A DNA stretch of 64,000 nucleotides from Rhodospirillales bacterium (GCA_021775005.1 JAJFIK010000009.1:6616-70615); one strand, 5' to 3'; positions 49,805-62,041 are shown, counted from the first letter of the stretch. Numbers and translations are program-made. Notes: generated from the letters alone by a model not told the origin.

Positions 49805-50590
49805 TTAAAGCCCCAGCACATCTGTCATGGCATAGAATCCTGGCGCTTGATCGCGGGCCCAAAGGGCGGCCTGCACCGCGCCCGCCGCAAACAACGTGCG
49901 GTCCTGGGCCTTGTGGGTGAGCTCCAAACGCTCCGAGCCGCCGGCAAAAATTACCGTGTGTTCGCCGATCACTTCACCGCCGCGCACACTGGAAAAGCCA
50001 ATGTCGCCGGTTTTGCGCGCGCCGGTGATACCGTCTCGCCCGCGCACCGATGAGGTCTCCAGATCAACGCTGCGCCCGGCGGCGGCGGCTTCTCCCAACA
50101 TCAATGCGGTGCCTGATGGCGCATCGACTTTGTGCTTGTGATGCATTTCTGAGATTTCAATATCGTATTGCGGCCCCAACATTGCCGCGGCTTTTTTAGT
50201 CAGCCCCAAAAGCACATTGACGCCGACGGAAAAATTCCCCGCCTTCACCACGCGCGCGCCTTCGGCGGCGGTGCGCAATTGTGTTTCCTGCGCGGGCGTA
50301 AACCCTGTCGTGCCGACGATGTGCACTTGCCCGAAAGAGGCGCAGCCTTGTGCATGGGCAAGGGTTGCTTCAGGTGCGGTGAAATCAAGTAGGCCGTCTG
50401 CGCCTTTCATGGCGGCACAAATGTCATCTGCAATGGTGATGCCGTGAGCTGTTCCCCCGATGCAGGCGGCCCCTTTGCGGTCTACTGCCCCAAAAAGCGC
50501 ACACCCGGGATGGGCCGCAACAACGTTCATGAGCATGCGCCCCATGCGCCCGCCTGCTCCGGCAACAACCAATTTCATGGGCCCGCTCAT
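49805..50590 (-). CDS. dapB: 4-hydroxy-tetrahydrodipicolinate reductase
   Basis: Start at MSGPMKLVVAGAGGRMGR. EISEMHHKHKVDAPSGTAL DapB signature. Confidence 0.9.
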   Translation of the reverse strand: MSGPMKLVVAGAGGRMGRMLMNVVAAHPGCALFGAVDRKGAACIGGTAHGITIADDICAAMKGADGLLDFTAPEATLAHAQGCASFGQVHIVGTTGFTPAQETQLRTAAEGARVVKAGNFSVGVNVLLGLTKKAAAMLGPQYDIEISEMHHKHKVDAPSGTALMLGEAAAAGRSVDLETSSVRGRDGITGARKTGDIGFSSVRGGEVIGEHTVIFAGGSERLELTHKAQDRTLFAAGAVQAALWARDQAPGFYAMTDVLGL

Positions 50591-51603
50591 CAGCCGCCTC
50601 CAAATATATTGCCGAGCATAGTCTCTGCAAACCCGGCCCCGACCCAGGGAACAATGGGAATAAGAAGATACAGCGGCAGCCGCGCCGCGGTGGGCAGATC
50701 CATAGGCCATTCGCGCACTTGTTCAATGCGGGTCTCTAGCGCGATAAGCGCAGGGATGCCGCTCACATCGCCGTTGCTATCGAGGCGCTTACGAGCTTCC
50801 GCCAGTCGCATGCGAATTCTACCAAGCTCTACTTCTTTGGCGGCGCGGATTTTTCGTCTCACCGGCTGCATAGTGGAGACAAAGTTGAACACAGCAATGG
50901 AAATCGCAATGCCCAGCGTGGGCTGGGCAAACACCGTGCCTTCGTTGTTGATAAAGAACAGCAAAATAATACCCACAAAAATCAGCCACACAAATGCGCC
51001 GCGCATGGCGATGCGTCCGAATATGGCAAGCTCGTGATGGCGATAGAGATCGATTTCCAACTTCTCTTTGATAAGTGCTGCCATGGCGTTGCCGGTAAAA
51101 ACCGAAGCCACAACGCCCCGCGCCAGCTGCACCCACAGAATTGGCGTCATTATGGCGAACCAGAATCCGATAGATCCCAGAAAGGCAAGAACATTACCGC
51201 CAGCGTTGGTCCAAATCATAAAGCCCAAGAAGATCGCGGAACAGATCAGACCGCCAATGGTCGCATTGCGCAAAGCGTTTGCGTTCTGTTGGCGCAGAAC
51301 ACCCTCCAATGCGAAGATGCGGCGCAAGTTGTCGTTGTCTCGCTGGCTGGCTTGAGCTTCAAAGTAACTCACGCCCAAGACGGCGCAATAAATGAGCGTC
51401 AAAATAAAGGCAAGACGCATGGTCTGCGCGCCGTTTGGGTCTGCGACAAAGGCGGTGAAATCTGCCGTAATCCAAATATTGGCCAAGAACGCGCCATAGA
51501 CCAGCAAACCCATTCCGATGACCGTTGCAACGGGCCCCAATGGCGAGGCGCGAAAGACCCAAAGTTCAATCGCATTACTATCTCTGAGGGGGATGCCCGT
51601 CAC
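50590..51603 (-). CDS. Hypothetical polytopic membrane protein
   Basis: 337 aa, >=6 predicted TM segments, no recognisable family. Confidence 0.45.
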   Translation of the reverse strand: MTGIPLRDSNAIELWVFRASPLGPVATVIGMGLLVYGAFLANIWITADFTAFVADPNGAQTMRLAFILTLIYCAVLGVSYFEAQASQRDNDNLRRIFALEGVLRQQNANALRNATIGGLICSAIFLGFMIWTNAGGNVLAFLGSIGFWFAIMTPILWVQLARGVVASVFTGNAMAALIKEKLEIDLYRHHELAIFGRIAMRGAFVWLIFVGIILLFFINNEGTVFAQPTLGIAISIAVFNFVSTMQPVRRKIRAAKEVELGRIRMRLAEARKRLDSNGDVSGIPALIALETRIEQVREWPMDLPTAARLPLYLLIPIVPWVGAGFAETMLGNIFGGG

Positions 51604-51885
51604 ACGGTAACCTTTCGTTTAGAATCGCTCGGTCTTCTCGTGCACTCTAGGGGGCGGCACGGGGCAATCGCAACGGGCCGCTGCCAGCGAATCACTTCGC
51701 CCGCGATTTGGCAGAGTCGCGGGCGGGGCGGTTTTTGCGGATCTGCGAAAACTTCGCGGATTCAACGAGTTATTGACGGGGCGGGGGCCGAGATTCGACT
51801 CTATGTGCCCGGTGTGATGGGAATCAGAACGGCGTTGGCCAAGCGCTGGGGGGCGATGGGCTGACGGGGATTTTTGGGGAACTAG

Positions 51886-52230
51886 ATGGAACATGACGTC
51901 GTTCACTTTAAAGGCCGTTCGGGGAAGATGTATCCCTTCACGCGCTTTCCGATCACCACCACGCTGCTCAGCGGCGGCGCGGGTTACATCTTGTTGTCGG
52001 AAATTGCGCGCAAAGCCTTTGAGGTGATTTCCATCCACGCCACCGCGAACATCGGCGGCGAGGATGTGAAAGACAACTCCACCAAGGCGATCTTCTCCGA
52101 CCGCGCCTCGCACATTTGTGTGCACTTTGAGGACGACACCGATGTGCGGCGCGCCCTCAAAGAAGATATCGAACTACATTACTTCGGCGAAGTGACGCCG
52201 GAGCTGGAGCATCAAGACGCACGCTGGTAA
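51886..52230 (+). CDS. Hypothetical protein
   Basis: 114-aa ORF with plausible spacing. No recognisable domain. Confidence 0.35.
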   Translation: MEHDVVHFKGRSGKMYPFTRFPITTTLLSGGAGYILLSEIARKAFEVISIHATANIGGEDVKDNSTKAIFSDRASHICVHFEDDTDVRRALKEDIELHYFGEVTPELEHQDARW

Positions 52231-52235
52231 CGCGG

Positions 52236-52643
52236 TCAGTTACTTGCCTTGTCGCCGCCTGCGCGGTCTTTTGAGCGATGGATGATCAGGGAAAGTACGA
52301 CCCACCAAATGGCAATAATGGCCCCTGTGAGAATGTCGGCGTTTACGCCCTCAGAAACATAGCCAGCGTTTTGCGCAATGGTCATGCCCAGCGATCCTGC
52401 CAGCACTGCACCTGCCCCGATTAGCGACACGCGCAGAAGGCGATAGGCCTTTTCGCTCTTCTCGACCACTCGAGTGAATTTCCCGGAGATGCTCAAGGCC
52501 ATCATCGATGCGGGCAAGAACCCCATGGCGATCAGATAGGCCCACATGCGGGTGGTGTCTTGCGCAATGGCGACCCAGGCAAGCGCGCCCACAAGCCCGA
52601 TCATCAACCAAACTCCAAGCGTATTTACCTTGTTGGCGGACAT
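52236..52643 (-). CDS. Small 4-TM membrane protein (paralog of 55269..55694), last gene of SdpR/SdpI-like operon
   Basis: Shares AMGFLPASMMALS and LIGAGAVLAGS blocks with the 4-TM protein ending the second operon. Confidence 0.5.
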   Translation of the reverse strand: MSANKVNTLGVWLMIGLVGALAWVAIAQDTTRMWAYLIAMGFLPASMMALSISGKFTRVVEKSEKAYRLLRVSLIGAGAVLAGSLGMTIAQNAGYVSEGVNADILTGAIIAIWWVVLSLIIHRSKDRAGGDKASN

Positions 52644-52692
52644 AGCTGTCCCTCCTTTTGTTAGTATACAGATTAAAAAACGTAAGCGGTGG

Positions 52693-53274
52693 TTAGCTCA
52701 TTCGCTGATTTGTTGACATCAGCACCCAGCGCCCAATAACGAGCACAACGGCGCCAGCACATATGATCGTTGAAACAATATTGGCGGGCCCGATGGGCAA
52801 GGTGAGCCACGCACCCGCATAGCCGATCCCGGCAACAACAAAGGTCCATCCTGAAAAGCGCTGCAGAGATTGAATGGCGGCCGGGGAGTGGCGTTTCTCA
52901 AGCATGGGCTCCAGCCGTTTGGGCATGAAGTTGCCGATGATCACTAGCACCAGCCCAACCCCAACACCGTAAGCGCGGCGCACCACATCACCGCCTGCGC
53001 TGCCAAGAAGGCCGGCTGCCTCTGCGGCGCTGAACCCCAGCGTTAGGGTAAGAAGGCTTGCAGCCAAAACGGCCGAGCCGCGAATTTCATTGAGGCCCTT
53101 GCGGCCGCGCAACAAGACCTCAAAGGCCCCCCAGGCGACAGGCAGGAACAATCCAGATATTGCCCATGTCATGGCGTCTTCTGGGTCGAGTGCCCAATTT
53201 GTCGTCGCCAATCCAGCCACAAGCGCAGCCCCCGCCAGCGGAAAGGCGAGAGGTATGGTGCGGGTTTCGGTCAT
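52693..53274 (-). CDS. SdpI/YhfL-family immunity-like membrane protein (copy 2)
   Basis: Start at MTETRT. GNFMPKRL...QRFSGWTFVVAG matches SdpI N-x-x-(G/P)-x-R ... (H/Q)R-x-x-G-W motifs. Paralog of the upstream gene. Confidence 0.55.
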   Translation of the reverse strand: MTETRTIPLAFPLAGAALVAGLATTNWALDPEDAMTWAISGLFLPVAWGAFEVLLRGRKGLNEIRGSAVLAASLLTLTLGFSAAEAAGLLGSAGGDVVRRAYGVGVGLVLVIIGNFMPKRLEPMLEKRHSPAAIQSLQRFSGWTFVVAGIGYAGAWLTLPIGPANIVSTIICAGAVVLVIGRWVLMSTNQRMS

Positions 53275-53302
53275 ATGGTTTTCCTTTCCTGGCGCGGGCT
53301 GA

Positions 53303-53866
53303 TTAGCGCGGCCTGCGCGCAAGGGCGCGGCGGGCCAAAACCAATCCAGAAGCAATGAGGGCCAAGGCGGTTGCAACAATATTGGCAGGCACAGTTGGCA
53401 AGATGAGCCATGCGGCGATGTAGCCGAGCCCGGCCAGCACAAATGCCCATCCAGTGAAGCGGTGCACGGCTTGAACGCGCACGGGGTCGAACTCCGCGTC
53501 ATCAAGGGGCGGAAGCCGTTTGGGGATGTAATTGCCCATGAAGATCAAAACGCCGCCCATAAGCAGCCCCAGCGCATTGCTTGCCAAGGTTCGGGCCTGT
53601 CCGTCGTATAGGTCGATTGATATGCCAATCGTGAAGAGCAACGGGAAGGCGAGCATGAAACTGGCAAAGAAGATCGAGCGGCGCACTTCATCCGAAGGCG
53701 CGTTACGCAATCCCTCAAGCACACCCCAGGCGATAGGAAGCATCACGGCAACGCCCGTCCACACAAACCAAAGCTCACGTTCCAAAAGCCAAACCGTTAG
53801 CGCCAACCCCGCCACCAGCGCATTGGCGCTCATGGGGTAGACCGCGCGCATCACTTTATCGCTCAT
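53303..53866 (-). CDS. SdpI/YhfL-family immunity-like membrane protein (copy 1)
   Basis: GNYIPKRL...VHRFTGWAFVLAG. Immediately downstream of an ArsR/SdpR-like regulator. Confidence 0.6.
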   Translation of the reverse strand: MSDKVMRAVYPMSANALVAGLALTVWLLERELWFVWTGVAVMLPIAWGVLEGLRNAPSDEVRRSIFFASFMLAFPLLFTIGISIDLYDGQARTLASNALGLLMGGVLIFMGNYIPKRLPPLDDAEFDPVRVQAVHRFTGWAFVLAGLGYIAAWLILPTVPANIVATALALIASGLVLARRALARRPR

Positions 53867-53869
53867 GGT

Positions 53870-54169
53870 TCAGTCCTCCTCATCGGGGTGCTCAACAGGC
53901 GCCCCTTCCATCTTCATGCCGAAGACTTCAGCAAAGCCGAGCAGCGCGTCTTCCAAAACCGAAAGCTTGATGCGGTAGATGATGGCCTTGCCGTCCCGTG
54001 TGGCATCCACAAGATTCGCTTCTCGCAAAACCGCAAAGTGGGCGGACATGGTGGGCTTTGAGACAGCAAATTCAGCCGCCAGCTCTCCGGCTGTCTTAGG
54101 GCCCTGACGCAGCAGCTCCAGCACCTTGCGGCGGGTGGGGTCGGCCAGGGCTTTGAAGACGTTGCTCAT
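53870..54169 (-). CDS. ArsR-family (SdpR-like autorepressor) transcriptional regulator
   Basis: 99 aa. ALADPTRRKVLELL...ELAAEFAVSKPTMSAHFAVLREANLV wHTH. Confidence 0.8.
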   Translation of the reverse strand: MSNVFKALADPTRRKVLELLRQGPKTAGELAAEFAVSKPTMSAHFAVLREANLVDATRDGKAIIYRIKLSVLEDALLGFAEVFGMKMEGAPVEHPDEED

Positions 54170-54350
54170 GCATAGATATTTAGCTAATTATCTAAATGAT
54201 TGCAAGAGGAAATCTGAAATTTATCCAAAAATGGCTGAAGTCTGGGTTGGATTGTCAGGTTGGTTAACCAACGGCGGCTGAGTGAGTTAAGCCAGTCAAC
54301 TCATCAACAAGGCTTGACAGATGGCAATCTTTAGTCGAGAGTGCCACGGT

Positions 54351-54437
54351 GCCTCGGTGGCGAAATTGGCAGACGCACCGAACTCCTAATTCGGCGATCA
54401 GTTGATCATGCGGGTTCGATCCCCGCTCGGGGCACCA
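54351..54437 (+). tRNA. Class-II (long variable arm) tRNA with tRNA-Leu-like D-arm and anticodon loop CUCCUAA (anticodon CCU, Arg AGG)
   Basis: Hand-folded. 7-bp acceptor (2 GU pairs), U8, 3-bp D stem with 11-nt D loop AAAUUGGCAGA, 5-bp anticodon stem ccgaa/ttcgg, 15-nt variable arm with gatc/gatc hairpin, T arm GCGGG-TTCGATC-CCCGC, A73, encoded CCA. Confidence 0.6.
54388..54409 (+). repeat. Direct repeat 1 (aattcggcgatcagttgatcat) inside tRNA (anticodon-stem 3' half plus variable arm)
   Basis: Identical 22-mer recurs at 55021..55042. Confidence 0.6.
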
Positions 54438-54462
54438 CACTAACCTCCCTGGAGACCGAAAA

Positions 54463-54975
54463 ATGGCAACAGCAAGCAGCGCCGCCAAGAAAAGACTTGA
54501 AGAACAACGGGGGCGGCTTATGGATGAGATCGTTGCCATTCGACATAGAATCGAAGGCTTAGAGATCGCAATTTCAACATTGGAAGATGAAGAAGAGGCC
54601 AAGAAGCAAAGTCGAAGCAGCGGGCGTCAAAAAAATCTTAAAAAGATTGTTCTTGATCTACTCGAAGAAGCAGGAACTCGAGGCCTGAATGCCACTCTTG
54701 CGGTTCAAACCGCGGAAAGACGTAACATTGAAATTGATCGAAATTCGGTATCTTCATTGCTTAGCCGCCTAAAACGGGACGATGTCGTCGACTATGATGG
54801 CCACCGATATCGGCTAAAGGTATTTTCAGCGTCAGCCGCGGGTGTAGCTCGAAGACGCGTTAGAAGTGAACCAGATAACGCAAGGAAACGCTTGGACGAC
54901 ACCCAACAGTTTAGAGACATTAACGAGGCTACTAAAGCCGCGATTTTGGCGCTCAATCGAAATTTGAAAAGTTAA
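54463..54975 (+). CDS. Hypothetical coiled-coil / winged-helix-like protein, low GC, inside tRNA-flanked mini-island
   Basis: 170 aa. N-terminal heptad-like region. IVLDLLEEAGTRGLNATLAVQTAERRNIEIDRNSVSSLLSRLKRDDVV resembles a wHTH. Confidence 0.45.
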   Translation: MATASSAAKKRLEEQRGRLMDEIVAIRHRIEGLEIAISTLEDEEEAKKQSRSSGRQKNLKKIVLDLLEEAGTRGLNATLAVQTAERRNIEIDRNSVSSLLSRLKRDDVVDYDGHRYRLKVFSASAAGVARRRVRSEPDNARKRLDDTQQFRDINEATKAAILALNRNLKS

Positions 54976-54979
54976 AAAA

Positions 54980-55006
54980 CGGGGCTAGCGCTCCTAACAC
55001 TAGCCC
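54980..55006. terminator. Hairpin ggggctag-N11-ctagcccc (T-run on minus strand)
   Basis: 8-bp stem. The reverse strand is followed by TTTTT. Confidence 0.4.
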
Positions 55007-55020
55007 CAGCGCCAAACTAC

Positions 55021-55042
55021 AAATTCGGCGATCAGTTGATCA
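55021..55042 (+). repeat. Direct repeat 2 (aattcggcgatcagttgatcat), candidate att remnant
   Basis: Exact copy of the tRNA segment 54388..54409. Followed by an AT-rich tract 55043..55270. Confidence 0.6.
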
Positions 55043-55268
55043 TACTATCGGATCAGCATTGACAATCTAGGTCAACCACATTTTGACGCAGTGATTAACC
55101 AATTGAAATATCACAGTTTTCGCATTGATAGAAAGAATGCGTGCCTACAAAATTGCCAACTATCTAGGTGTCACTAGCGCTATTCAGCGCGGTGCCGCCC
55201 CAACAATTCAGGCGCAATCCTTTGTTCATTCAAAACGGCTGAAGTCTAGGGATTTTGGACAGAAAAGA

Positions 55269-55694
55269 TTAGGAATCAGACCCAGCATCAGGGTCTTTTT
55301 CGGCAACCTGACTGAGCCGGTTGCTGAGAATATCAGCGAAAATCACAATCATTGGCAGCACCAGAAGGGTAATTATTTTGCCGCTGCCGTCGCCGGTCCA
55401 GCCCAGTGTGTCCGTTGCTGCAAAGCCAAAGGCGAGCGCCAACACCATGCCCGCGCCCACAAGGCCTGAGCGAAACCCGCCTGCCGCCCGCGGCCCGATG
55501 CTGATGGCTCCCGTGCGCCGCGCCAGCAGATGAAGCCCGGTCATCAGGGCGGGCATAAATGCCATCCCCAGCAGCCAGGTGAGAATCCGCTCTGGCGCGA
55601 GGGCAATGTTCACCGCGCCGGCCAGCACAACCAGGGCCGCGATGCCGATGACAAGCGGCGTCAATATCCGGGCAGGGGCAGCTTCATGCGTCAT
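55269..55694 (-). CDS. Small 4-TM membrane protein (paralog of 52236..52643), last gene of 4-paralog operon
   Basis: 141 aa, 4 TM. GMAFMPALMTGL and LVGAGMVLALAFG blocks shared with its paralog. Confidence 0.5.
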   Translation of the reverse strand: MTHEAAPARILTPLVIGIAALVVLAGAVNIALAPERILTWLLGMAFMPALMTGLHLLARRTGAISIGPRAAGGFRSGLVGAGMVLALAFGFAATDTLGWTGDGSGKIITLLVLPMIVIFADILSNRLSQVAEKDPDAGSDS

Positions 55695-55727
55695 TGCTGT
55701 CTTCTCCTTACCGCCGCGCCCCAGGCA

Positions 55728-56216
55728 TCAATCGACATCGCGCAGAGTCTCCTTTTGGCCTTCCTCAAACAGGTGATCGATGAAGGCGCGCACATCTGTC
55801 CGGAACGTGTGGCGAACCCGCTGCCACCACTCCAATGCGCCCTTGCGCACCGTCACGGGGCGGGCGTTGAGGGGAAGCTGCTTCCAATCTTCCTCGGGCA
55901 TTTGCTTTGCCCTGTGCTGCTCATAAATGTCCATCATGGACGCGGCCCATTGAGACAAATACGCGCCATAGGCAACACGCTCTTCTGCATCCAGATTCGC
56001 AAGGCCATCGACGCCCTTCACCCAGACGCGCCGGAGGTCGGGGTTTTCAAGAAGGTAGGCCTGGCTGCGCACACCAAGCGCATTGCGTTCGCCGATGCGG
56101 CGCAGCGCTTGCTCTTTGGTATTTGCGCGCACCTGAAACGCGAGATAGATCAGAGAAATGATAACGGCGATGCCGCCAAACACTTCGGCGTAGTTGGCAA
56201 GTTGATCAATAGGCAT
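55728..56216 (-). CDS. Single-pass membrane protein, tandem paralog P1
   Basis: Starts MPIDQLANYAEVFGGIAVIISLIYLAFQVRANTKEQ (TM anchor), then a divergent Trp-containing soluble domain. Confidence 0.55.
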   Translation of the reverse strand: MPIDQLANYAEVFGGIAVIISLIYLAFQVRANTKEQALRRIGERNALGVRSQAYLLENPDLRRVWVKGVDGLANLDAEERVAYGAYLSQWAASMMDIYEQHRAKQMPEEDWKQLPLNARPVTVRKGALEWWQRVRHTFRTDVRAFIDHLFEEGQKETLRDVD

Positions 56217-56736
56217 GATTCTCAATTCCTTTTCGGCCCTCGCCGCCGGCAACAAGATATCCCTTGCCCTTGCTCGAACTAAGCAAGTCGCTGACAAGTG
56301 CTTGGGTTGACGGTACGAAAAACACCTTCATCCCCGTCAACTCCCACCAATGGCGCCCGCCAACAGAACCAAGCACTGAATAGATCATCCGCTCAAGTGC
56401 CGCACGATCTTCCGCTGTTGCGTTTCCCGCGCGCCGCATTTTGTCCATCAATTCAAGAACCCGCACAGCCTTTGTCATCACGTTGTTGAACCGAAATTTG
56501 TCAGGGTCTGAAAGGGCCGTGTAGTCCGCAGTTCCGGTGACAAGCACCTCCGGCATTGTGCTGGCGTCGGTAAAGGGGTCAGAGAGCGACATAAGCAATT
56601 CATAGGCTTCTTGATCCCGGCGGCGTTTTTGCTCGCGCGTATTGTCCCGCACTTGAAACCCCAGGAAAATCAACGTGACAATGACAGCTCCGCCGCCAAA
56701 TATCTCCGCGTAATTTGCAAGCACATCAATCGACAT
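56206..56736 (-). CDS. Single-pass membrane protein, tandem paralog P2
   Basis: Starts MSIDVLANYAEIFGGGAVIVTLIFLGFQVRDNTREQ. Overlaps P1 start and P3 stop by ~11 nt. Confidence 0.55.
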   Translation of the reverse strand: MSIDVLANYAEIFGGGAVIVTLIFLGFQVRDNTREQKRRRDQEAYELLMSLSDPFTDASTMPEVLVTGTADYTALSDPDKFRFNNVMTKAVRVLELMDKMRRAGNATAEDRAALERMIYSVLGSVGGRHWWELTGMKVFFVPSTQALVSDLLSSSKGKGYLVAGGEGRKGIENHAY

Positions 56737-57241
56737 GGACACTCCTGGACGTTGGGGGGTTGACGCCCTGCGCTTCAAGCTCTGCCACCACCTGATCAAC
56801 GCGTTCGCGCACACGATCCGACGCAAGGGCCTTGTCGGCAAAATTACTCCACCAATACCGAATGTCGGGATAGTTGAACCCGCCAATCATATACCGGTCG
56901 AACCGCGCCAGCTCATCGGCGGTGATTGAGCCGTCTTCATGCATCCCAATAATCATATCAAAGGCATGAAAAACTTTGAGATACATGTTCGTAAATCTGA
57001 TCCGCTCGGCTTCGGTCAGATTGTTATAATCGCGCGCTGCTTTGACGAATGTCTCAGACAGGTTGGCAGGGCCAGACATAAAGTCATAAATCGTGTTTTG
57101 AATTTCAAAGCTTTCAAAGCGACGTTGATGGCGTTGCTCGCGTGTATTGGCGCGGACCTGAAAGGCCAAGTAAATCAGCGAAACGATAACTGCCGCACCG
57201 CCAAACACCTCTGCATAATTTGCAAGTTGATCAATCGGCAC
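56726..57241 (-). CDS. Single-pass membrane protein, tandem paralog P3
   Basis: Starts MPIDQLANYAEVFGGAAVIVSLIYLAFQVRANTREQ. Shares NLTEAERIRF and RYWWSNF blocks with P4. Confidence 0.55.
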   Translation of the reverse strand: MPIDQLANYAEVFGGAAVIVSLIYLAFQVRANTREQRHQRRFESFEIQNTIYDFMSGPANLSETFVKAARDYNNLTEAERIRFTNMYLKVFHAFDMIIGMHEDGSITADELARFDRYMIGGFNYPDIRYWWSNFADKALASDRVRERVDQVVAELEAQGVNPPTSRSVHVD

Positions 57242-57725
57242 TCGCGGCTTCCTCCCGGTCCCGCTCCACTATCAGGCGATCAATATGGGTTCGCACACGT
57301 GGCACAACCCGCTTGGCAAAGTCCATGTTGTTCCACCAATAACGTGAGCCTGTGGTCATCATAGTTCCAAGAATGAACTGCTCAAAGCTTTCATAGGTGT
57401 CCTGGTCGATGCTGCCTTCTTTACGCATTTGCATCACCAGATCAAAGGCGTGGCACATCTTCACCATCATAATGCCGAATCTGATCCGCTCCTCATCATT
57501 GAGCACGGCGTAATCCTCAGCGGCCTTCATAAAAATTCGCGTCGTCTCGGACCCGTCGACAATGTTGTTGAAGATTGAATTCTGAATCTCAAACAAGTCA
57601 TAGCGCAAGCGGTGGAGCTGCTCGCGCGTGTTGGCGCGCACTTGGAACGCCAAATAAATCAGCGAGACGATAACCGCCGCGCCGCCAAAAACCTCAGCGT
57701 AATTTGAAAGCGTATCAATCGGCAT
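57231..57725 (-). CDS. Single-pass membrane protein, tandem paralog P4 (first gene of operon)
   Basis: Starts MPIDTLSNYAEVFGGAAVIVSLIYLAFQVRANTREQ. Overlaps P3 start by 11 nt. Confidence 0.55.
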   Translation of the reverse strand: MPIDTLSNYAEVFGGAAVIVSLIYLAFQVRANTREQLHRLRYDLFEIQNSIFNNIVDGSETTRIFMKAAEDYAVLNDEERIRFGIMMVKMCHAFDLVMQMRKEGSIDQDTYESFEQFILGTMMTTGSRYWWNNMDFAKRVVPRVRTHIDRLIVERDREEAASAD

Positions 57726-57791
57726 GAAAGCCCCGCGCAATTTTCCAAGCGCTGAGATTAGGCGGGGGTTCGCAACGTGTCTAGGCGGGCG

Positions 57792-58592
57792 TTATTTGGG
57801 CAACGCCCAATTTTCACGCAAATAGTCTTCATGAAAGCCGCGCTTGAGAATGTTGCTGTAAGAGTGCTGCGCATCCCCTTCCACCGCCTCGCCCGTTTCG
57901 GTGGTGATGAGCGTGACGCCAAGGGCGCGAGCCGCTTCGATGCGGGCGGCAAGGACGATACTTTGGCTGCCGCGGCGGCGGAACTTCGGGTCAGTGGCGC
58001 CATAATCGACGACCGCTGCGCCGTCTTCTACATAAAGCCCGCCGGTACCCGCCGGGGTCTCCCCGTCAAAACTCATGAAAATGTGCCAGTTGGGGTGGTC
58101 AACCAGTGCGGCAAGGGCGGGTTGGGCGGCTTTGCTAATATCAAAAGCGTTACCGCAGACACGCGCAAAGTCATCAGCGTTGCTGCTGTCAATTTCGCGC
58201 ACCGTTAAATCAGATTTCGCCAGCTCAGCTGGCGCATTGTCGCGGAAAAATTTCATCCAGCCGCGGGTTGTCTCAAACCCGGCGTTGCCGAGCCAGTGGC
58301 GAATTTTATTTTTAGGCTCTGCTTGCGGCGCGACATGGATAAAGTAACGCCCGACTTCGGCGGCGTCATAGATTGCCTTGATGCGCGCAATGCCTGCTTC
58401 TGTGGCGGGCGCGTTCAGGCCCAAGCCAATTGTGCGATTGAGCAATATGCTGCCATCACCGGCGCATACGGAAACTGCCGCGCCATCAATCTCATAGAGC
58501 GCAAGCCCGAGCTGGTCGCGGATTTGGGGGCTGGCTGCTTCGTGCAAGGTTTCAACGGAGCGGCGCTCAACCCATTCGGTTTTGGATGTCAT
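57792..58592 (-). CDS. GNAT-family acetyltransferase (tandem GNAT-like halves)
   Basis: 266 aa with ...RRRGSQSIVLAARIEAARALG... acetyl-CoA motif in the C-terminal half. Confidence 0.65.
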   Translation of the reverse strand: MTSKTEWVERRSVETLHEAASPQIRDQLGLALYEIDGAAVSVCAGDGSILLNRTIGLGLNAPATEAGIARIKAIYDAAEVGRYFIHVAPQAEPKNKIRHWLGNAGFETTRGWMKFFRDNAPAELAKSDLTVREIDSSNADDFARVCGNAFDISKAAQPALAALVDHPNWHIFMSFDGETPAGTGGLYVEDGAAVVDYGATDPKFRRRGSQSIVLAARIEAARALGVTLITTETGEAVEGDAQHSYSNILKRGFHEDYLRENWALPK

Positions 58593-58618: not shown

Positions 58619-59776
58619 CTATTCCGCCGCGCGCTTGATAAAGCCTTCAAGGCGTTTTTTGAACTTGGCGAATTCAGGAAACACCGCGCCGCCATCTGCC
58701 TCGTCAAAGTCCTTGAGCAATTGCTTTTGCTTGGCGTTGAGTTTGGTGGGCACCTCAATCACCGCCTCCACCAGCATATCACCGCTGCGATTGCCGCGCA
58801 GCACAGGCATGCCCTTGCCGCGCAGGCGGAACTGGCGGCCGGTCTGGGTGCCTTCGGGAATGGAAATGCGCGCTTGCCCACCGTTGACGGTCGGCACTTC
58901 CACCTGGCCGCCCAAGGCCGCCGTAGTGAAGGGTACGGGCATCTGCAGATAAATATGCGGCCCCTCGCGGTGGAAAATCTCATGCGGGCGAATGGAGATG
59001 AAAATATAAAGATCGCCCGCAGGTCCGCCGCGCATGCCGGCTTGCCCTTTACCGGCAAGGCGAATGCGGGTGCCGTCTTCCACACCAGCGGGAATGTTCA
59101 CCGCTAAGGTTTGTTCTTTTTCTTTGCGGCCTGCCCCGCCGCAGTCGCGACACGGGTTCTTGATGGTCTTGCCGGTGCCGCCGCAATGGGGGCAGGCGCG
59201 CTCAATGGTAAAGAAGCCTTGGGTCGCGCGCACCTTGCCCATGCCGTGGCAGGTGTCGCAGTTTTCTGGTTGGGTGCCGGGCTCCGCGCCTGCACCGCCG
59301 CAGCGTTCACAGGCGATGGTAGTGGGCACGCGCACTTCGGTATCTTTGCCCAAATAGGCTTCTTCGAGATTGATTTCCATGTTGTAGCGCAGGTCCGCAC
59401 CGCGGCTGCGCCCGCGGGCTCCGCCACGGCCCCCGCCGCGACCGCCCATGACATCGCCAAACAAGTCATCAAAAATATCTGAAAAGGCGGAACCAAATTC
59501 AGGTCCAAACCCAGCGCCGCCCGGTCCCCGCCCGCCGGGCCCCCGACCTCCTTCAAAGGCGGCATGACCAAAGCGGTCATAAGCGGCGCGCTTTTCAGGG
59601 TCTTTCAGCGCTTCATAAGCCTCGCCAATTTCCTTGAATTTCACTTCCGCTTCGGGGTCGTCTTTGTTCTGGTCGGGGTGGTACTTCATGGCAAGTTTGC
59701 GAAACGCAGCCTTCAGCTCCGCATCGGTTGCGGTTTTGGTAACGCCAAGGGCTTCGTAGTAATCGCGCTTGCTCAT
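58619..59776 (-). CDS. dnaJ: Chaperone DnaJ
   Basis: J-domain HPD, G/F region, four CxxCxGxG zinc fingers. Confidence 0.97.
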
Positions 59777-59865: not shown

Positions 59866-61806
59866 TTAATTGGCCGAAGACTTCTTGTCTTCGTCGTCAA
59901 CTTCTTCGAATTCTGCATCCACAACATCACCGTCGTCGGTGTTGTCGGCCGAGCCAGCAGCATCGGCCGCCGCTGCTGCTTCACCTTCAGCTTGTTGGGC
60001 GGCGTACATCGCCTCACCCAGCTTCATGGCGCTGGTGGAAAGGGCCTGCAGCTTTTCGTCAAGCTCTTGCTTGGTGACGTCTTCCTTCTTGAGCAGATCA
60101 GTGATCTCCTCAATGTCAGCTTCGATCGCCATCTTGTCTTCCGGTGCCAGCGCTTCGCCGTGTTCCTTGAGGGACGCTTCAGTGGAATGGGCCAGGGCTT
60201 CTGCCTTGTTGCGCACTTCCACAAGCTCACGACGTTCAGCATCTTCCGCCTTGTGCTCTTCGGCGTCCTTCATCATCTGATCGATCTCTGCGTCGGAAAG
60301 ACCGCCAGAGGCCTGAATGCGAATGGCTTGCTCTTTGCCGGTCGCTTTATCCTGTGCGCCAACATTGACGAGCCCGTTGGCATCGATGTCGAAGGTCACT
60401 TCGATTTGCGGTACGCCGCGCGGAGCGGGCGGAATGCCCACCAGGTCAAATTGGCCGAGGCTCTTGTTGTCCGCCGCCATTTCCCGCTCGCCTTGGAAGA
60501 CGCGGATGGTGACCGCGCTTTGATGATCTTCGGCAGTGGAGAAAATCTGACCCTTCTTAGTAGGGATCGTGGTGTTGCGATCAATAAGCCGCGTGAACAC
60601 ACCGCCCAGAGTTTCAATGCCCAAGGACAACGGCGTCACGTCAAGAAGCAACACGTCTTTCACATCACCTTGCAGCACGCCCGCTTGAATGGCAGCGCCC
60701 ATGGCCACCACTTCATCGGGGTTCACGCCGGTGTGCGGTTCTTTGCCAAAAAGGTTCTGCACTGTTTCTTGCACTTTTGGCATGCGGGTCATGCCGCCCA
60801 CCAAAATCACATTGTCGATGTCACTCGCTGACAGCCCGGCATCTTTCAGAGCGTCTTTACATGGACCTTCGGTGCGCTTGATGAGGCTGAGCACAAGGGT
60901 TTCCAGCTTAGCGCGAGTCAACTTCATGGTCAGGTGCTTGGGGCCAGAGGCGTCAGCGGTAATAAACGGCAGATTGATTTCCGTTTGCGTGGTGCTTGAC
61001 AACTCAATCTTGGCTTTTTCAGCAGCCTCTTTCAGGCGCTGGAGCGCCAGGCGATCTTTCTTCAGATCTATGCCTTGGTCTTTTTTAAACTCAGCGGCGA
61101 GGTACTGCACAATTGCCATGTCAAAGTCTTCCCCGCCAAGGAACGTATCCCCGTTGGTGGATTTCACTTCAAACACGCCATCGCCAATTTCAAGCACGCT
61201 CACATCAAAGGTGCCGCCGCCAAGGTCATAAACCACGATGGTGCCGGTTTGCTCTTTGTCGAGGCCATAGGCGAGGGCTGCCGCCGTGGGCTCGTTGATA
61301 ATGCGCAAAACCTCAAGGCCGGCGATCTTGCCGGCGTCTTTGGTGGCCTGGCGTTGGGCGTCATTAAAGTAAGCAGGAACCGTGATGACCGCCTGGGTCA
61401 CGCCGGTGCCGACAAAGCTTTCCGCGGTTTCTTTCATCTTTTGCAGGATGAAGGCGGAAATTTCACTTGGGCTCAGCTTTTCGCTGTTGCGGCCCTCAAC
61501 CCACGCATCGCCGTTTTCGGCCTTGATGATGGAATACGGCACCATGGCCATATCCTTCTTCGTGGTGGGGTCGTCAAACGGGCGGCCAATAAGCCGCTTG
61601 ATGGCGAAAAACGTATGCTCCGGGTTGGTGACGGCTTGCCGCTTGGCGGGCTGGCCGATCAGGCGCTCACCGTCTTCGGTGAAGGCCACCATGGACGGCG
61701 TTGTGCGCGCGCCCTCGGAATTCTCAATTACTTTTGGTGTGGATCCATCCATCACGGCAACGCATGAATTGGTCGTGCCGAGGTCGATCCCGATTACTTT
61801 TGCCAT
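59866..61806 (-). CDS. dnaK: Chaperone DnaK (Hsp70)
   Basis: Start at [23 protein letters not shown]-terminal EEVD-like acidic tail. Confidence 0.97.
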
Positions 61807-62041
61807 TTTATATTCTCCCATAAACGGCGGAATTCTGCGGGTCCTCCGCATTTGAAGCGGCCCGCTGATCCCCTAGAGATTTGAAGGTCCAAACCACCTC
61901 GCGGGGGTCTTGGGCTTTGGGGGCCCGTGATCTCCCGCGAATTCCAGCCGGATATAGGGATTTGAGCCCCCAAGTGCAACAGGGGGCGGGGCCATGGGTC
62001 GCAGTAATGAAAGGTACTTTAGTTAGGGCTATTGTAATTAA

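Follow-up and report, generated by a model that had tools for sequence, protein, structure and literature searches.

Many homologs of the SdpI immunity protein have no toxin linked to them, and motif 2 of SdpI is the part proposed to sequester the regulator SdpR. Orphan or polymorphic immunity islands of the T6SS and CDI type consist of diverged paralogs lying in the same orientation, in arrays that vary in gene number from genome to genome, and the gene array described here resembles them in this respect. Motif 1 of SdpI, located in the external TM1-TM2 loop, is the proposed toxin-binding half of the protein, and motif 2, with the consensus GNY[LM]PK..PN..GIRTPWTLS..W.KT[HN]R[LF].G, occupies the cytoplasmic TM4-TM5 loop (Povolotsky et al. 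2010, PMC2910880). Variants that comprise only TMS1-4 and lack motif 2 have been described and proposed to be unifunctional or to form heterodimers (PMC2910880).

We analyzed a stretch of 64,000 nucleotides from a Rhodospirillales bacterium (hereafter the window) in which an sdpRI-type module is joined to a tandem array of four paralogs, P1-P4, that belong to a very large uncharacterised family; this cluster is real and conserved in the lineage. All genes of the two minus-strand operons described in the first-pass annotation exist, and the components are as follows.

57726..57775, minus strand: conserved leader 5' of the first P gene, CCCGCCTAA(G/T)CTC ... AAAWT ... CGGGG
57231..57725, minus strand: P4, 164 aa, N-terminal TM helix followed by a predicted cytoplasmic helical domain
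56726..57241, minus strand: P3, 171 aa, GTG start, 11-nt overlap with the P4 stop
56206..56736, minus strand: P2, 176 aa, 11-nt overlap with the P3 stop, the most diverged paralog
55728..56216, minus strand: P1, 162 aa, 11-nt overlap with the P2 stop
55269..55694, minus strand: 4TM-B, 141 aa, with four TM segments; orthologous to the 4-TM gene found after the P array in relatives
54170..54227, minus strand: sdpR leader with the near-palindrome TAGATAATTAGCTAAATATCTA
53870..54169, minus strand: sdpR, 99 aa, SdpR-family (ArsR-type) autorepressor by family match
53303..53866, minus strand: Mem1, 187 aa, about six TM segments, TM4-loop-TM5 with partial similarity to SdpI motif 2
52693..53277, minus strand: Mem2, 194 aa, paralog of Mem1
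52236..52643, minus strand: 4TM-A, 135 aa, paralog of 4TM-B
51886..52230, plus strand: o114, a conserved gene convergent with 4TM-A and 5 nt from its end

The regulator of operon A, called ArsR/SdpR-like at first pass, indeed scores above the cut-off of the NCBIfam SdpR model NF033789 (104.8 bits against 100, model positions 1-77 of 79) and also matches Pfam HTH_5 (E 2e-15). It is separated from Mem1 by 3 nt, and a regulator directly upstream of a Mem partner recurs in L009, L011, L014 and L100, as well as in the distant locus L099, where an ArsR-type regulator and a Mem homolog overlap by 4 nt; the canonical order sdpR-sdpI was seen in six of the eight reference loci. The leader of sdpR is near-identical in L011 and L016, and its near-palindrome, conserved across three genomes, is likely an SdpR operator overlapping the promoter. 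Mem1 and Mem2 are 37% identical (E 3e-30); a simple hydropathy scan counts five and four TM segments, respectively, and alignment indicates six. Their relationship to SdpI, asserted in the first-pass annotation, is remote and partial only, as judged from profile comparison. The Pfam SdpI model (PF13630) matches just two of 15 Mem-family members, with a best, sub-threshold E of 0.006, and where Mem was aligned with eight SdpI proteins annotated by PGAP, the match (hhalign probability 83%, E 9e-6, 60 columns) is confined to TM4-motif 2-TM5. The Mem flanks GNYxPK and HRFxGxxFVxAG agree with the published motif 2 (PMC2910880), and GNYIPK and HRFTGWAFVLAG are present in the loop; the GIRTPWTLS core is missing and the loop is 6 residues shorter. 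The similarity at motif 2 is therefore partial, and motif 1 of the external TM1-TM2 loop is missing from Mem; the profile alignment stops short of the N-terminal half. A search for the toxin genes of an sdp locus with phmmer (E<=1) found no SdpC- or SdpA-like gene in the window, which is a weak test because the queries were partial.

The two 4-TM proteins, rightly regarded as paralogs from the start, are 30% identical (BLASTP E 2e-9) and fit one family HMM. The 4TM family also aligns with Mem over nearly its entire length (hhalign 96.3%, E 1.7e-9, 4TM positions 7-141 on Mem 6-132), with HMM cross-hits in addition; by alignment, therefore, the 4-TM proteins are C-terminally truncated Mem paralogs without the TM4-TM5 loop. 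No direct similarity to SdpI was detected for the 4TM family (probability 1.8%), which corresponds to the N-terminal half of the longer proteins. Distant homologs of 4TM occur on their own, not accompanied by P genes.

In the P array, the translational coupling noticed at first pass proved to be strictly regular: at all three junctions the overlap is exactly 11 nt, of the form (A/G)TG-CCN-ATT-GA, such that the TGA of the upstream gene falls within the codons for Ile3-Asp4 of the gene that follows, and an SD-like purine run is present at every junction. P4 starts at an ATG that lies five codons into the TTG ORF listed for it, and 4TM-B begins 33 nt past P1, with a strong SD. In the window as well as in L003 and L011, the conserved leader precedes the first P gene, regardless of whether GNAT or dnaJ lies upstream, and is possibly a promoter or regulatory element of the array itself. 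The four proteins each fit the family HMM (E 1e-40 to 1e-53) and are 31-48% identical overall. The N-terminal 36 residues, initially described as almost invariant, are 86-94% identical among P4, P3 and P1, and only 71-77% identical between these and P2; of the conserved blocks, the WW pair is invariant in P1-P4, and P1 has a degenerate ERxRF block, ERVAYG. The common plan consists of a short N-terminal tail, predicted to lie outside, a single TM helix that is highly conserved and bears a juxtamembrane QxRxNT motif, and a predicted cytoplasmic helical bundle of about 130 aa with PGxRxWW; the AF2 model of P3 is all-helical (pLDDT 84.5).

The P family comprises 8,907 clusters at 50% identity (E<=1e-3), with conservation along the full length, and, as initially surmised, P1-P4 have no Pfam model and match no characterised family, housekeeping families included. 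The closest approach is to DUF6082 (PF19560): residues 8-155 of P3 align with model positions 3-145 of 163 (E 0.06, 13.4 bits), and four of 43 diverse P-family members match this model at E<=0.01 (best E 1.6e-4), all scores (13-20 bits) remaining under the gathering threshold of 26.7. DUF6082 has no function on record and is not mentioned in the literature searched. Comparison with PADLOC, PHROGs and the Pfam immunity-protein models yielded no match, and there was no fold match to viral or solved structures. The family is absent from the phage and IMG/VR collections searched and nearly absent from plasmids; given also the fixed chromosomal slot described below, mobility of the array is not supported.

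The first-pass annotation likened the locus, with its supposed diversifying ectodomains, to polymorphic immunity or exclusion loci. On such a view, outward-facing P domains would neutralise incoming toxins or block phage, with the SdpI-like proteins as further immunity genes, and the array would vary between strains under an arms race. The predicted topology is the opposite of that supposed: the K+R count, scored over 167 members of the family, is 0.04 in the flank N-terminal to the TM helix and 3.1 in the 15 residues that come next, which, under the positive-inside rule, predicts an N-out/C-in orientation, so that the variable domain, assigned to the cytoplasm in 99% of these members, would not be an ectodomain. 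Within the P proteins, conservation is highest in the TM and juxtamembrane segment, which is kept by selection rather than by gene conversion: where residues are identical, 40-50% of their codons show synonymous differences. For the same pairs of genomes, dN is 0.10-0.33 in P4-type and P3-type orthologs, 0.14-0.16 in DnaJ and 0.36 in DapB, and the P values are comparable to that of GNAT as well; these P orthologs change at the amino-acid level about as fast as the neighbouring housekeeping genes. The paralog subtypes, 20-60% identical, are ancient and not recently diversified. On these two grounds, an arms race is not supported.

The cluster resides in a fixed slot, between dnaK-dnaJ(-GNAT) and o114-M337-dapB, and relatives hold the same gene families as one contiguous, co-oriented cluster. 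Both operons end in members of one 4-TM family, which supports the initial view that they are related. The slot is occupied with or without the SdpR module: L100 and L101 contain SdpR-Mem-4TM without P, L003 has three P genes followed by 4TM without SdpR or Mem, L009 has five P genes followed by SdpR-Mem-4TM, and L011 combines two P genes with 4TM-SdpR-Mem. Since relatives carry either module alone, the SdpR and P modules are separable. The P4 subtype is the commonest in relatives, with orthologs 57-85% identical across the arrays of 10 relatives. The copy number varies, from 0 to 5 P genes in the slot, with at least six on one unanchored relative contig, and the array is thus not single-copy everywhere; subtype content and order also differ between genomes. 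Such tandem, diverged and numerically variable paralogs next to an SdpR/SdpI-like module speak for an immunity locus, but the genomes compared are distant (DnaJ 77-80% identical), so their differing gene contents do not amount to polymorphism among strains.

The tRNA that had been taken for an integration scar beside the operons is absent from the corresponding position in relatives and is part of a segment inside the cluster, with the following components.

54247..55231, no strand assigned: insertion of about 1 kb with a hairpin in addition to the tRNA, its partial copy and ORF170
54351..54437, plus strand: tRNA (ARAGORN; Rfam 49.6 bits)
54463..54975, plus strand: ORF170, a small protein of 170 aa, coiled-coil followed by a winged-helix-like part
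55009..55043, plus strand: partial tRNA copy, a degenerate 35 nt covering the anticodon arm and variable arm, 31/35 identical

The tRNA and one ORF constitute a ~1-kb insertion specific to this genome, with an imperfect direct repeat of 19 nt on either side (54228-54246 and 55232-55250). The insertion interrupts a cluster whose genes lie together in relatives: the intergenic distance from 4TM-B to sdpR is 1099 nt here as opposed to 86-95 nt in L011 and L016. The GC content of the insertion is 47-50%, and ORF170, which has no phage match, is of foreign composition (GC3 0.40 versus 0.64-0.73 in its neighbours). The tRNA belongs to class II: its variable arm is long, its body is of the tRNA-Leu type and it carries A73, yet its anticodon is CCU; its nearest plasmid-borne relatives are tRNA-Leu(TAA) genes. 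The segment is best explained as a later insertion unrelated to the cluster. A strong minus-strand terminator-like hairpin (55008-54980) now lies between the P unit and operon A.

The genomic context of P genes in distant lineages points to small polytopic membrane proteins as recurrent neighbours. At 66 distant loci, small proteins with at least three TM segments occur at 0.266 per kb up to 600 bp from P genes, compared with 0.026 per kb beyond 1.5 kb, a roughly 10-fold enrichment that is inflated by multi-pair loci; 55 of the 66 loci, on contigs that are short, have no polytopic neighbour. There are five to six pairs of a P gene and a polytopic gene in L079, where some P genes are truncated or frameshifted, and two in L096, and the pair in L094 adjoins a YoeB toxin. 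At least three partner families show no detectable mutual similarity; the partners have three TM segments at about 120 aa or four to five at 140-175 aa, and one such family, m120, also adjoins a distant 4TM homolog. In size and TM count, these partners seem to resemble known membrane immunity proteins. Some distant P members are found among toxin-antitoxin, IS66 or OLD-like ATPase genes.

The best explanation of these observations, which we favour tentatively, is that two separable modules share one fixed slot and yield membrane complexes of P with 4TM/Mem, along with Mem-SdpR signalling. Under this model, P proteins would assemble through the conserved TM helix with small polytopic partners, here 4TM/Mem, into inner-membrane complexes; Mem proteins would report membrane perturbation or a ligand by sequestering SdpR, leading to de-repression of operon A; and the 4-TM versions would act without signalling. 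By analogy with SdpRI only, the physiological role would most likely be to sense an agent that acts on membranes or to protect against it. The cluster may also serve in immunity or exclusion.

A rather less probable reading is that the two modules are unrelated neighbours, the P array being an ordinary lineage-specific expansion, expressed with or after dnaK-dnaJ-GNAT, that shares a permissive slot with an independent sdpRI-like envelope module. This would fit the separate occurrence of the modules (L003 versus L100), the purifying selection on P orthologs, the conserved leader that sdpR has of its own, the hairpin that now parts the two units, and the co-orientation of all genes from dnaK through 4TM-B, which are 26-89 nt apart, no terminator being predicted between them. 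The first P gene, however, has its own conserved upstream motif, independent of the upstream gene, and in most relatives the gene right after the P array is 4TM. Within the clade, this adjacency could be inherited synteny rather than function; P genes are associated with small polytopic proteins in unrelated lineages too, and m120 links the P and 4TM contexts.

It is unlikely, in our estimate, that P and its neighbour form a two-gene conflict cassette, with P as a membrane-inserted effector, toxin or abortive-infection trigger, the adjacent 4TM, m120 or m165 protein as the immunity protein or antitoxin, and the arrays as stacked cassettes, although the repeated pairs in L079 and L096, the YoeB-linked pair, the local enrichment, the dimensions of the partners and their mutual dissimilarity, as of exchangeable immunity genes, all agree with it. 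In a broader and similarly doubtful form, this reading would pair the P family with an exchangeable small polytopic partner (4TM/SdpI-like, m120 or m165) in a widespread and so far undescribed type of two-gene membrane module that acts in conflict between bacteria or with phage, either as effector and immunity or as sensor and pore; if so, the window would show a four-fold stack of the module, connected to an SdpR-type regulator. Least probable is the polymorphic immunity or exclusion locus originally proposed, to which the toxin-antitoxin, IS66 and OLD-like neighbours of some distant members lend some support, but which is at odds with the predicted cytoplasmic orientation, the housekeeping-like dN, the age of the subtypes, the lack of matches in defense, phage and immunity-protein collections and the fixed, toxin-free (by partial queries) and non-mobile slot.

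When compared with described systems, the P array differs from T6SS/CDI immunity islands in that partial queries found no linked toxin, in having no mobile context, in the predicted cytoplasmic location of a domain held on a membrane anchor, and in the conservation of orthologs at housekeeping-like rates; with DUF6082, the family shares a weak full-length similarity, all scores being below the gathering threshold. Operon A differs from the Bacillus subtilis sdp locus in that no sdpABC-like toxin genes were found in the window with partial queries, and from the sdpR-sdpI module in that the full-length membrane gene is duplicated and accompanied by two truncated paralogs. Unlike SdpI, Mem lacks motif 1, its four N-terminal TM segments have no detectable similarity, and a shorter acidic loop replaces the GIRTPWTLS core; furthermore, the SdpI family belongs mainly to Firmicutes, whereas the host here is proteobacterial-like. 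As in B. subtilis, an SdpR-family regulator lies directly upstream of, and close-coupled to, a protein of about 190 aa with about six TM segments. The TM4-TM5 cytoplasmic loop of Mem and its flanks appear homologous to motif 2 in part, and both Mem and 4TM fit the family plan of about 200 aa with six TM segments, or truncations to 3, 4 or 5 TMS. The sdpRI-like part is accordingly of an already known kind, varied here.

Re-derivation of the gene models confirmed the gene layout proposed in the first-pass annotation, with the following features in and around the cluster.

59866..61851, minus strand: dnaK
58619..59776, minus strand: dnaJ
57792..58592, minus strand: weak-GNAT protein, 266 aa, preceding the P array
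57231..57725, minus strand: P4
56726..57241, minus strand: P3, GTG start
56206..56736, minus strand: P2
55728..56216, minus strand: P1
55269..55694, minus strand: 4TM-B, 33 nt after P1, strong Shine-Dalgarno (SD) sequence in the gap
54228-54246 and 55232-55250: imperfect 19-nt direct repeat bounding a low-GC insertion of ~1 kb
54351..54437, plus strand: tRNA
53870..54169, minus strand: SdpR-family regulator (NCBIfam, 104.8 bits against a cut-off of 100)
53303..53866, minus strand: Mem1
52693..53277, minus strand: Mem2 (37% identity to Mem1, E 3e-30)
52236..52643, minus strand: 4TM-A (30% identity to 4TM-B, E 2e-9)
51886-52230, plus strand: o114, conserved 114-aa protein (74-81% identity in relatives)
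50590-51603, minus strand: 337-aa protein with ~6 TM segments

Here P1-P4 are tandem paralogs consisting of an N-terminal TM helix and a ~130-aa domain, whereas the paralogous 4TM and Mem proteins contain four and about six TM segments, respectively. At each junction within the P array, the genes overlap by exactly 11 nt, with the upstream TGA falling within codons Ile3 and Asp4 of the following gene and an SD-like run ahead of it. The motif CCCGCCTAA(G/T)CTC ... AAAWT ... CGGGG lies 5' of the first P gene in the window (57726-57775, minus strand) and in two homologous loci (L003, 9950-10000; L011, 7950-8000). This motif is present with either the GNAT gene or dnaJ as the preceding gene, suggesting that the P array has its own regulatory element.

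The chromosomal slot that harbors the cluster is retained in relatives represented by metagenomes and MAGs, which appear to be separated at about the genus level or further given that their DnaJ proteins are only 77-80% identical. Among one reference genome for each GTDB species, by contrast with these metagenomes and MAGs, a single hit was obtained, and it is distant. The slot is bordered by dnaK-dnaJ, with or without the GNAT gene, on one side, and by the convergent 114-aa gene, the gene for the 337-aa membrane protein and dapB on the other side. The 114-aa and 337-aa genes form the conserved right-hand border beside dapB, with the 337-aa gene absent from L011 and L012; a family match was sought for both proteins, and none was found. 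The content of the slot varies among the loci.

Genes between dnaJ and o114
Window: P x4, 4TM, insertion, SdpR, Mem, Mem, 4TM
L003 group: P x3, 4TM
L009: P x5, SdpR, Mem, 4TM
L011: P x2, 4TM, SdpR, Mem
L014: P, GNAT, SdpR, Mem, Mem
L017, L018: P x1, 4TM
L100, L101: SdpR, Mem, 4TM; no P, no GNAT

A further contig (L008) consists of a tandem of at least six P genes and nothing else, which leaves its placement in the slot unanchored. The P module and the SdpR module are separable, and a 4TM gene may end either. The P subtypes are old, being 20-60% identical to one another, and nearly all arrays include a copy of the P4 type. Comparison of orthologs was limited to dN because dS is saturated (above 1); the dN values are 0.10-0.33 for the P4 and P3 subtypes, 0.14-0.16 for DnaJ, 0.18-0.27 for the GNAT protein, 0.36 for DapB and 0.53-0.63 for 4TM. 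The P array evolves by birth-and-death under purifying selection, with no obvious arms race. The family was not detected in the INPHARED phages or IMG/VR, and is represented in just two plasmid records.

The tRNA and a 170-aa ORF (ORF170) occupy, on the plus strand, the low-GC stretch between the two minus-strand units, which had been interpreted as a tRNA integration scar. This interpretation does not hold: no tRNA was found in the corresponding region of the relatives, and no integrase gene in the ~1-kb insertion. The 4TM-sdpR intergenic region, about 86-90 nt in relatives, where it includes a conserved near-palindromic sdpR leader, spans 1,099 nt in the window, and excision of the segment between the 19-nt repeats would leave 95 nt. 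Comparison with the short, tRNA-free region of the relatives indicates that the insertion splits a once contiguous cluster and is not a trace of its acquisition. The insertion also contains a 35-nt degenerate copy of the anticodon and variable arms of the tRNA (anticodon loop CTACAAA); without the T-arm and the 3' end, this copy does not qualify as a displaced 3' half of the classical kind, so that, with no integrase, an attL/attR pair could be ruled out. ORF170 has a GC3 of 0.40, against 0.64-0.73 in its neighbors, combines a coiled coil with a winged-helix-like region (weak match to MCM4_WHD) and was not found among phages. A strong, bidirectional-looking hairpin (54980-55008) would stop minus-strand read-through.

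The tRNA itself (54351-54437, plus strand) is unusual: ARAGORN calls it Arg(CCT), and it is 87 nt long, with a long variable arm, a Leu D-arm of the 3-bp type, A73 and an encoded CCA. In the plasmid collection it is closest to tRNA-Leu(TAA) genes, with which it aligns over its whole length apart from a difference in all three anticodon bases (TAA to CCT). The base used by E. coli ArgRS is A20; position 20 here appears to be C, so that this tRNA may be leucylated and read AGG, a codon almost unused in the core genes here (1 of 1,902 codons). The exact sequence was not found in IMG/VR, and a literature search for a Leu-type tRNA reading AGG returned nothing relevant.

The P proteins belong to a large, unannotated family that is undescribed in the sources searched. 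Scans of P1-P4 and 43 diverse family members against Pfam, NCBIfam, PADLOC and PHROGs gave nothing above threshold; the sole signal is a resemblance to DUF6082, full-length but below threshold. This is a domain of unknown function, for which the literature search found nothing relevant. An exhaustive profile search yielded representatives of 8,907 clusters with E<=1e-3, of which 3,122 reach E<=1e-10; almost without exception they are 150-180 aa long and aligned end to end, whereas a word-indexed search recovered just 26 relatives; in cluster look-ups, the members are named "hypothetical protein" in their sources (e.g. Halioglobus, Congregibacter). Mutual identity among P1-P4 is 31-48%. The 36-aa N-terminus, previously described as almost invariant, is indeed 86-94% identical among P4, P3 and P1, but P2 shares only 71-77% with these. 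Synonymous differences occur in 40-50% of the identical-residue codons of this segment, which points to protein-level selection and not to recent gene conversion; the latter is ruled out, third-position identity being just 42-69%. The best conserved elements of the family are the TM helix, the ensuing Q-x-R-x-N-T (Q28 invariant, R30 above 90%) and a PGxRxWW block. In the AlphaFold model, which is confident (26 sequences; pLDDT 84.5), a long helix comprising the TM segment and a stalk (residues 3-56) is followed by a helical bundle. Among 167 members, the mean number of K+R is 0.04 before the hydrophobic segment and 3.1 in the 15 residues after it, with the excess on the C-terminal side in 99% of the proteins. 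By the positive-inside rule, a cytoplasmic location is thus predicted for the variable ~130-aa domain and an external one for the short N-tail, which contradicts the earlier notion of diversifying ectodomains. A double-glycine leader or signal peptide was considered and rejected: the N-flank is acidic, without positive charge, and the C-flank strongly basic, GG is not conserved family-wide, and there is no C39 transporter. One 349-aa protein (P0030) contains two P-like units, matched as two stretches of a single polypeptide, a fusion that fits with adjacent P units working together.

Tandem arrays are common among distant P members as well. Across 66 distant, non-redundant loci, the density of small ORFs (90-260 aa) with at least three TM segments is 0.266/kb up to 600 bp from P genes, against 0.026/kb at distances above 1.5 kb. 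The corresponding Poisson probability, 2e-13, is inflated by multi-pair loci; counted by locus, a polytopic neighbor is present in 11 of the 66 versus about 2 expected. Two recurrent families are m120, with 3 TM segments (L082, L083, L094, L096-98), and m165, with about 5 (L079, six copies; L030, L081, L086, L094); homology of either to 4TM, Mem or P was not detectable. In L092 and L093, m120 is directly 3' of a distant 4TM homolog; other distant 4TM homologs are solitary. Some distant P genes lie among genes for YoeB, GNAT, IS66 or OLD-like ATPases. A GC-rich metagenome contig (L079, 1-11660) contains five to six successive pairs in which a P gene is followed by a gene for a ~165-aa, ~5-TM membrane protein of the m165 family, with several P genes truncated or frameshifted. 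In a Congregibacter sp. contig (L094, 1-5500), three P genes are found among many small co-oriented genes at ~100-nt spacing, including m120, m165, DUF2442, a YoeB toxin and a small GNAT, a layout that recalls an integron cassette array.

The membrane proteins of the second module had been called SdpI-like. We compared them with eight PGAP-annotated SdpI proteins from plasmids. For six of these, the gene comes directly after that of an annotated SdpR, and two have SdpC- or SdpA-type genes as neighbors. The profile match to Mem (probability 83%, E 9e-6) is restricted to TM4, the loop and TM5, that is, the region of SdpI motif 2, a cytoplasmic loop for which sequestration of SdpR has been proposed (PMC2910880); in Mem, the flanks are preserved as GNYIPK and HRFTGWAFVLAG, and the core GIRTPWTLS is missing. 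The likeness ends there: neither the N-terminal half of Mem nor the 4TM family resembles motif 1, and the Pfam SdpI model is sub-threshold on the Mem family. The 4TM family is homologous to Mem residues 6-132 (profile-profile probability 96.3%, E 1.7e-9) and each HMM retrieves members of the other family, so the 4TM proteins are C-terminally truncated Mem paralogs. The regulator-Mem pair recurs in a distant genome (L099). Directly 5' of sdpR, the near-palindrome TAGATAATTAGCTAAAT(A/G)TCTA (window, 54170-54227, minus strand; L011, 9470-9522; L016, 1760-1799), almost identical across three genomes with DnaJ just ~78% identical, is probably the SdpR operator, with TAGATAATTAGCTAAATATCTA as the putative target sequence.

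From the observed homologies, topology prediction, cluster modularity and polytopic-neighbor enrichment, we tentatively propose, at somewhat less than even confidence, an sdpRI-like sensing/protection module with full-length and truncated membrane paralogs, accompanied by a P array that probably assembles with small polytopic partners. Under this proposal, Mem would sequester SdpR, the sdpRI-like module would be protective, and the P proteins would assemble with their partners in the membrane via the conserved TM helix. It is somewhat unlikely that the modules are unrelated neighbors and the P array is a dnaKJ-linked membrane expansion, a view compatible with their separability and less so with the polytopic neighbors in distant loci. 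A new effector/immunity cassette seems distinctly unlikely; YoeB genes near some distant P genes would suit it. The polymorphic exclusion locus of the first-pass annotation, suggested by the conserved anchor with diverged domains, is quite improbable given the predicted cytoplasmic location of these domains.

The present value of the proposed sdpRI-like module with a P array is that of a well-defined lead, with gene models, a topology prediction, presence/absence variants in one slot and candidate partner families. If P proteins work with small polytopic partners, ~9,000 "hypothetical protein" clusters from marine and soil bacteria would gain a testable functional context. Sequestration of a repressor by a membrane protein, as in the SdpRI paradigm, would then also reach into Proteobacteria-like lineages, where it would be split and involve multiple paralogs. 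Natural SdpI variants with four TM segments and without motif 2 have been suggested to be unifunctional or to form heterodimers (PMC2910880). The SdpR/Mem/4TM part is a variant of this already known SdpRI type, in which 4TM is related to Mem as these published four-TM variants are to SdpI.
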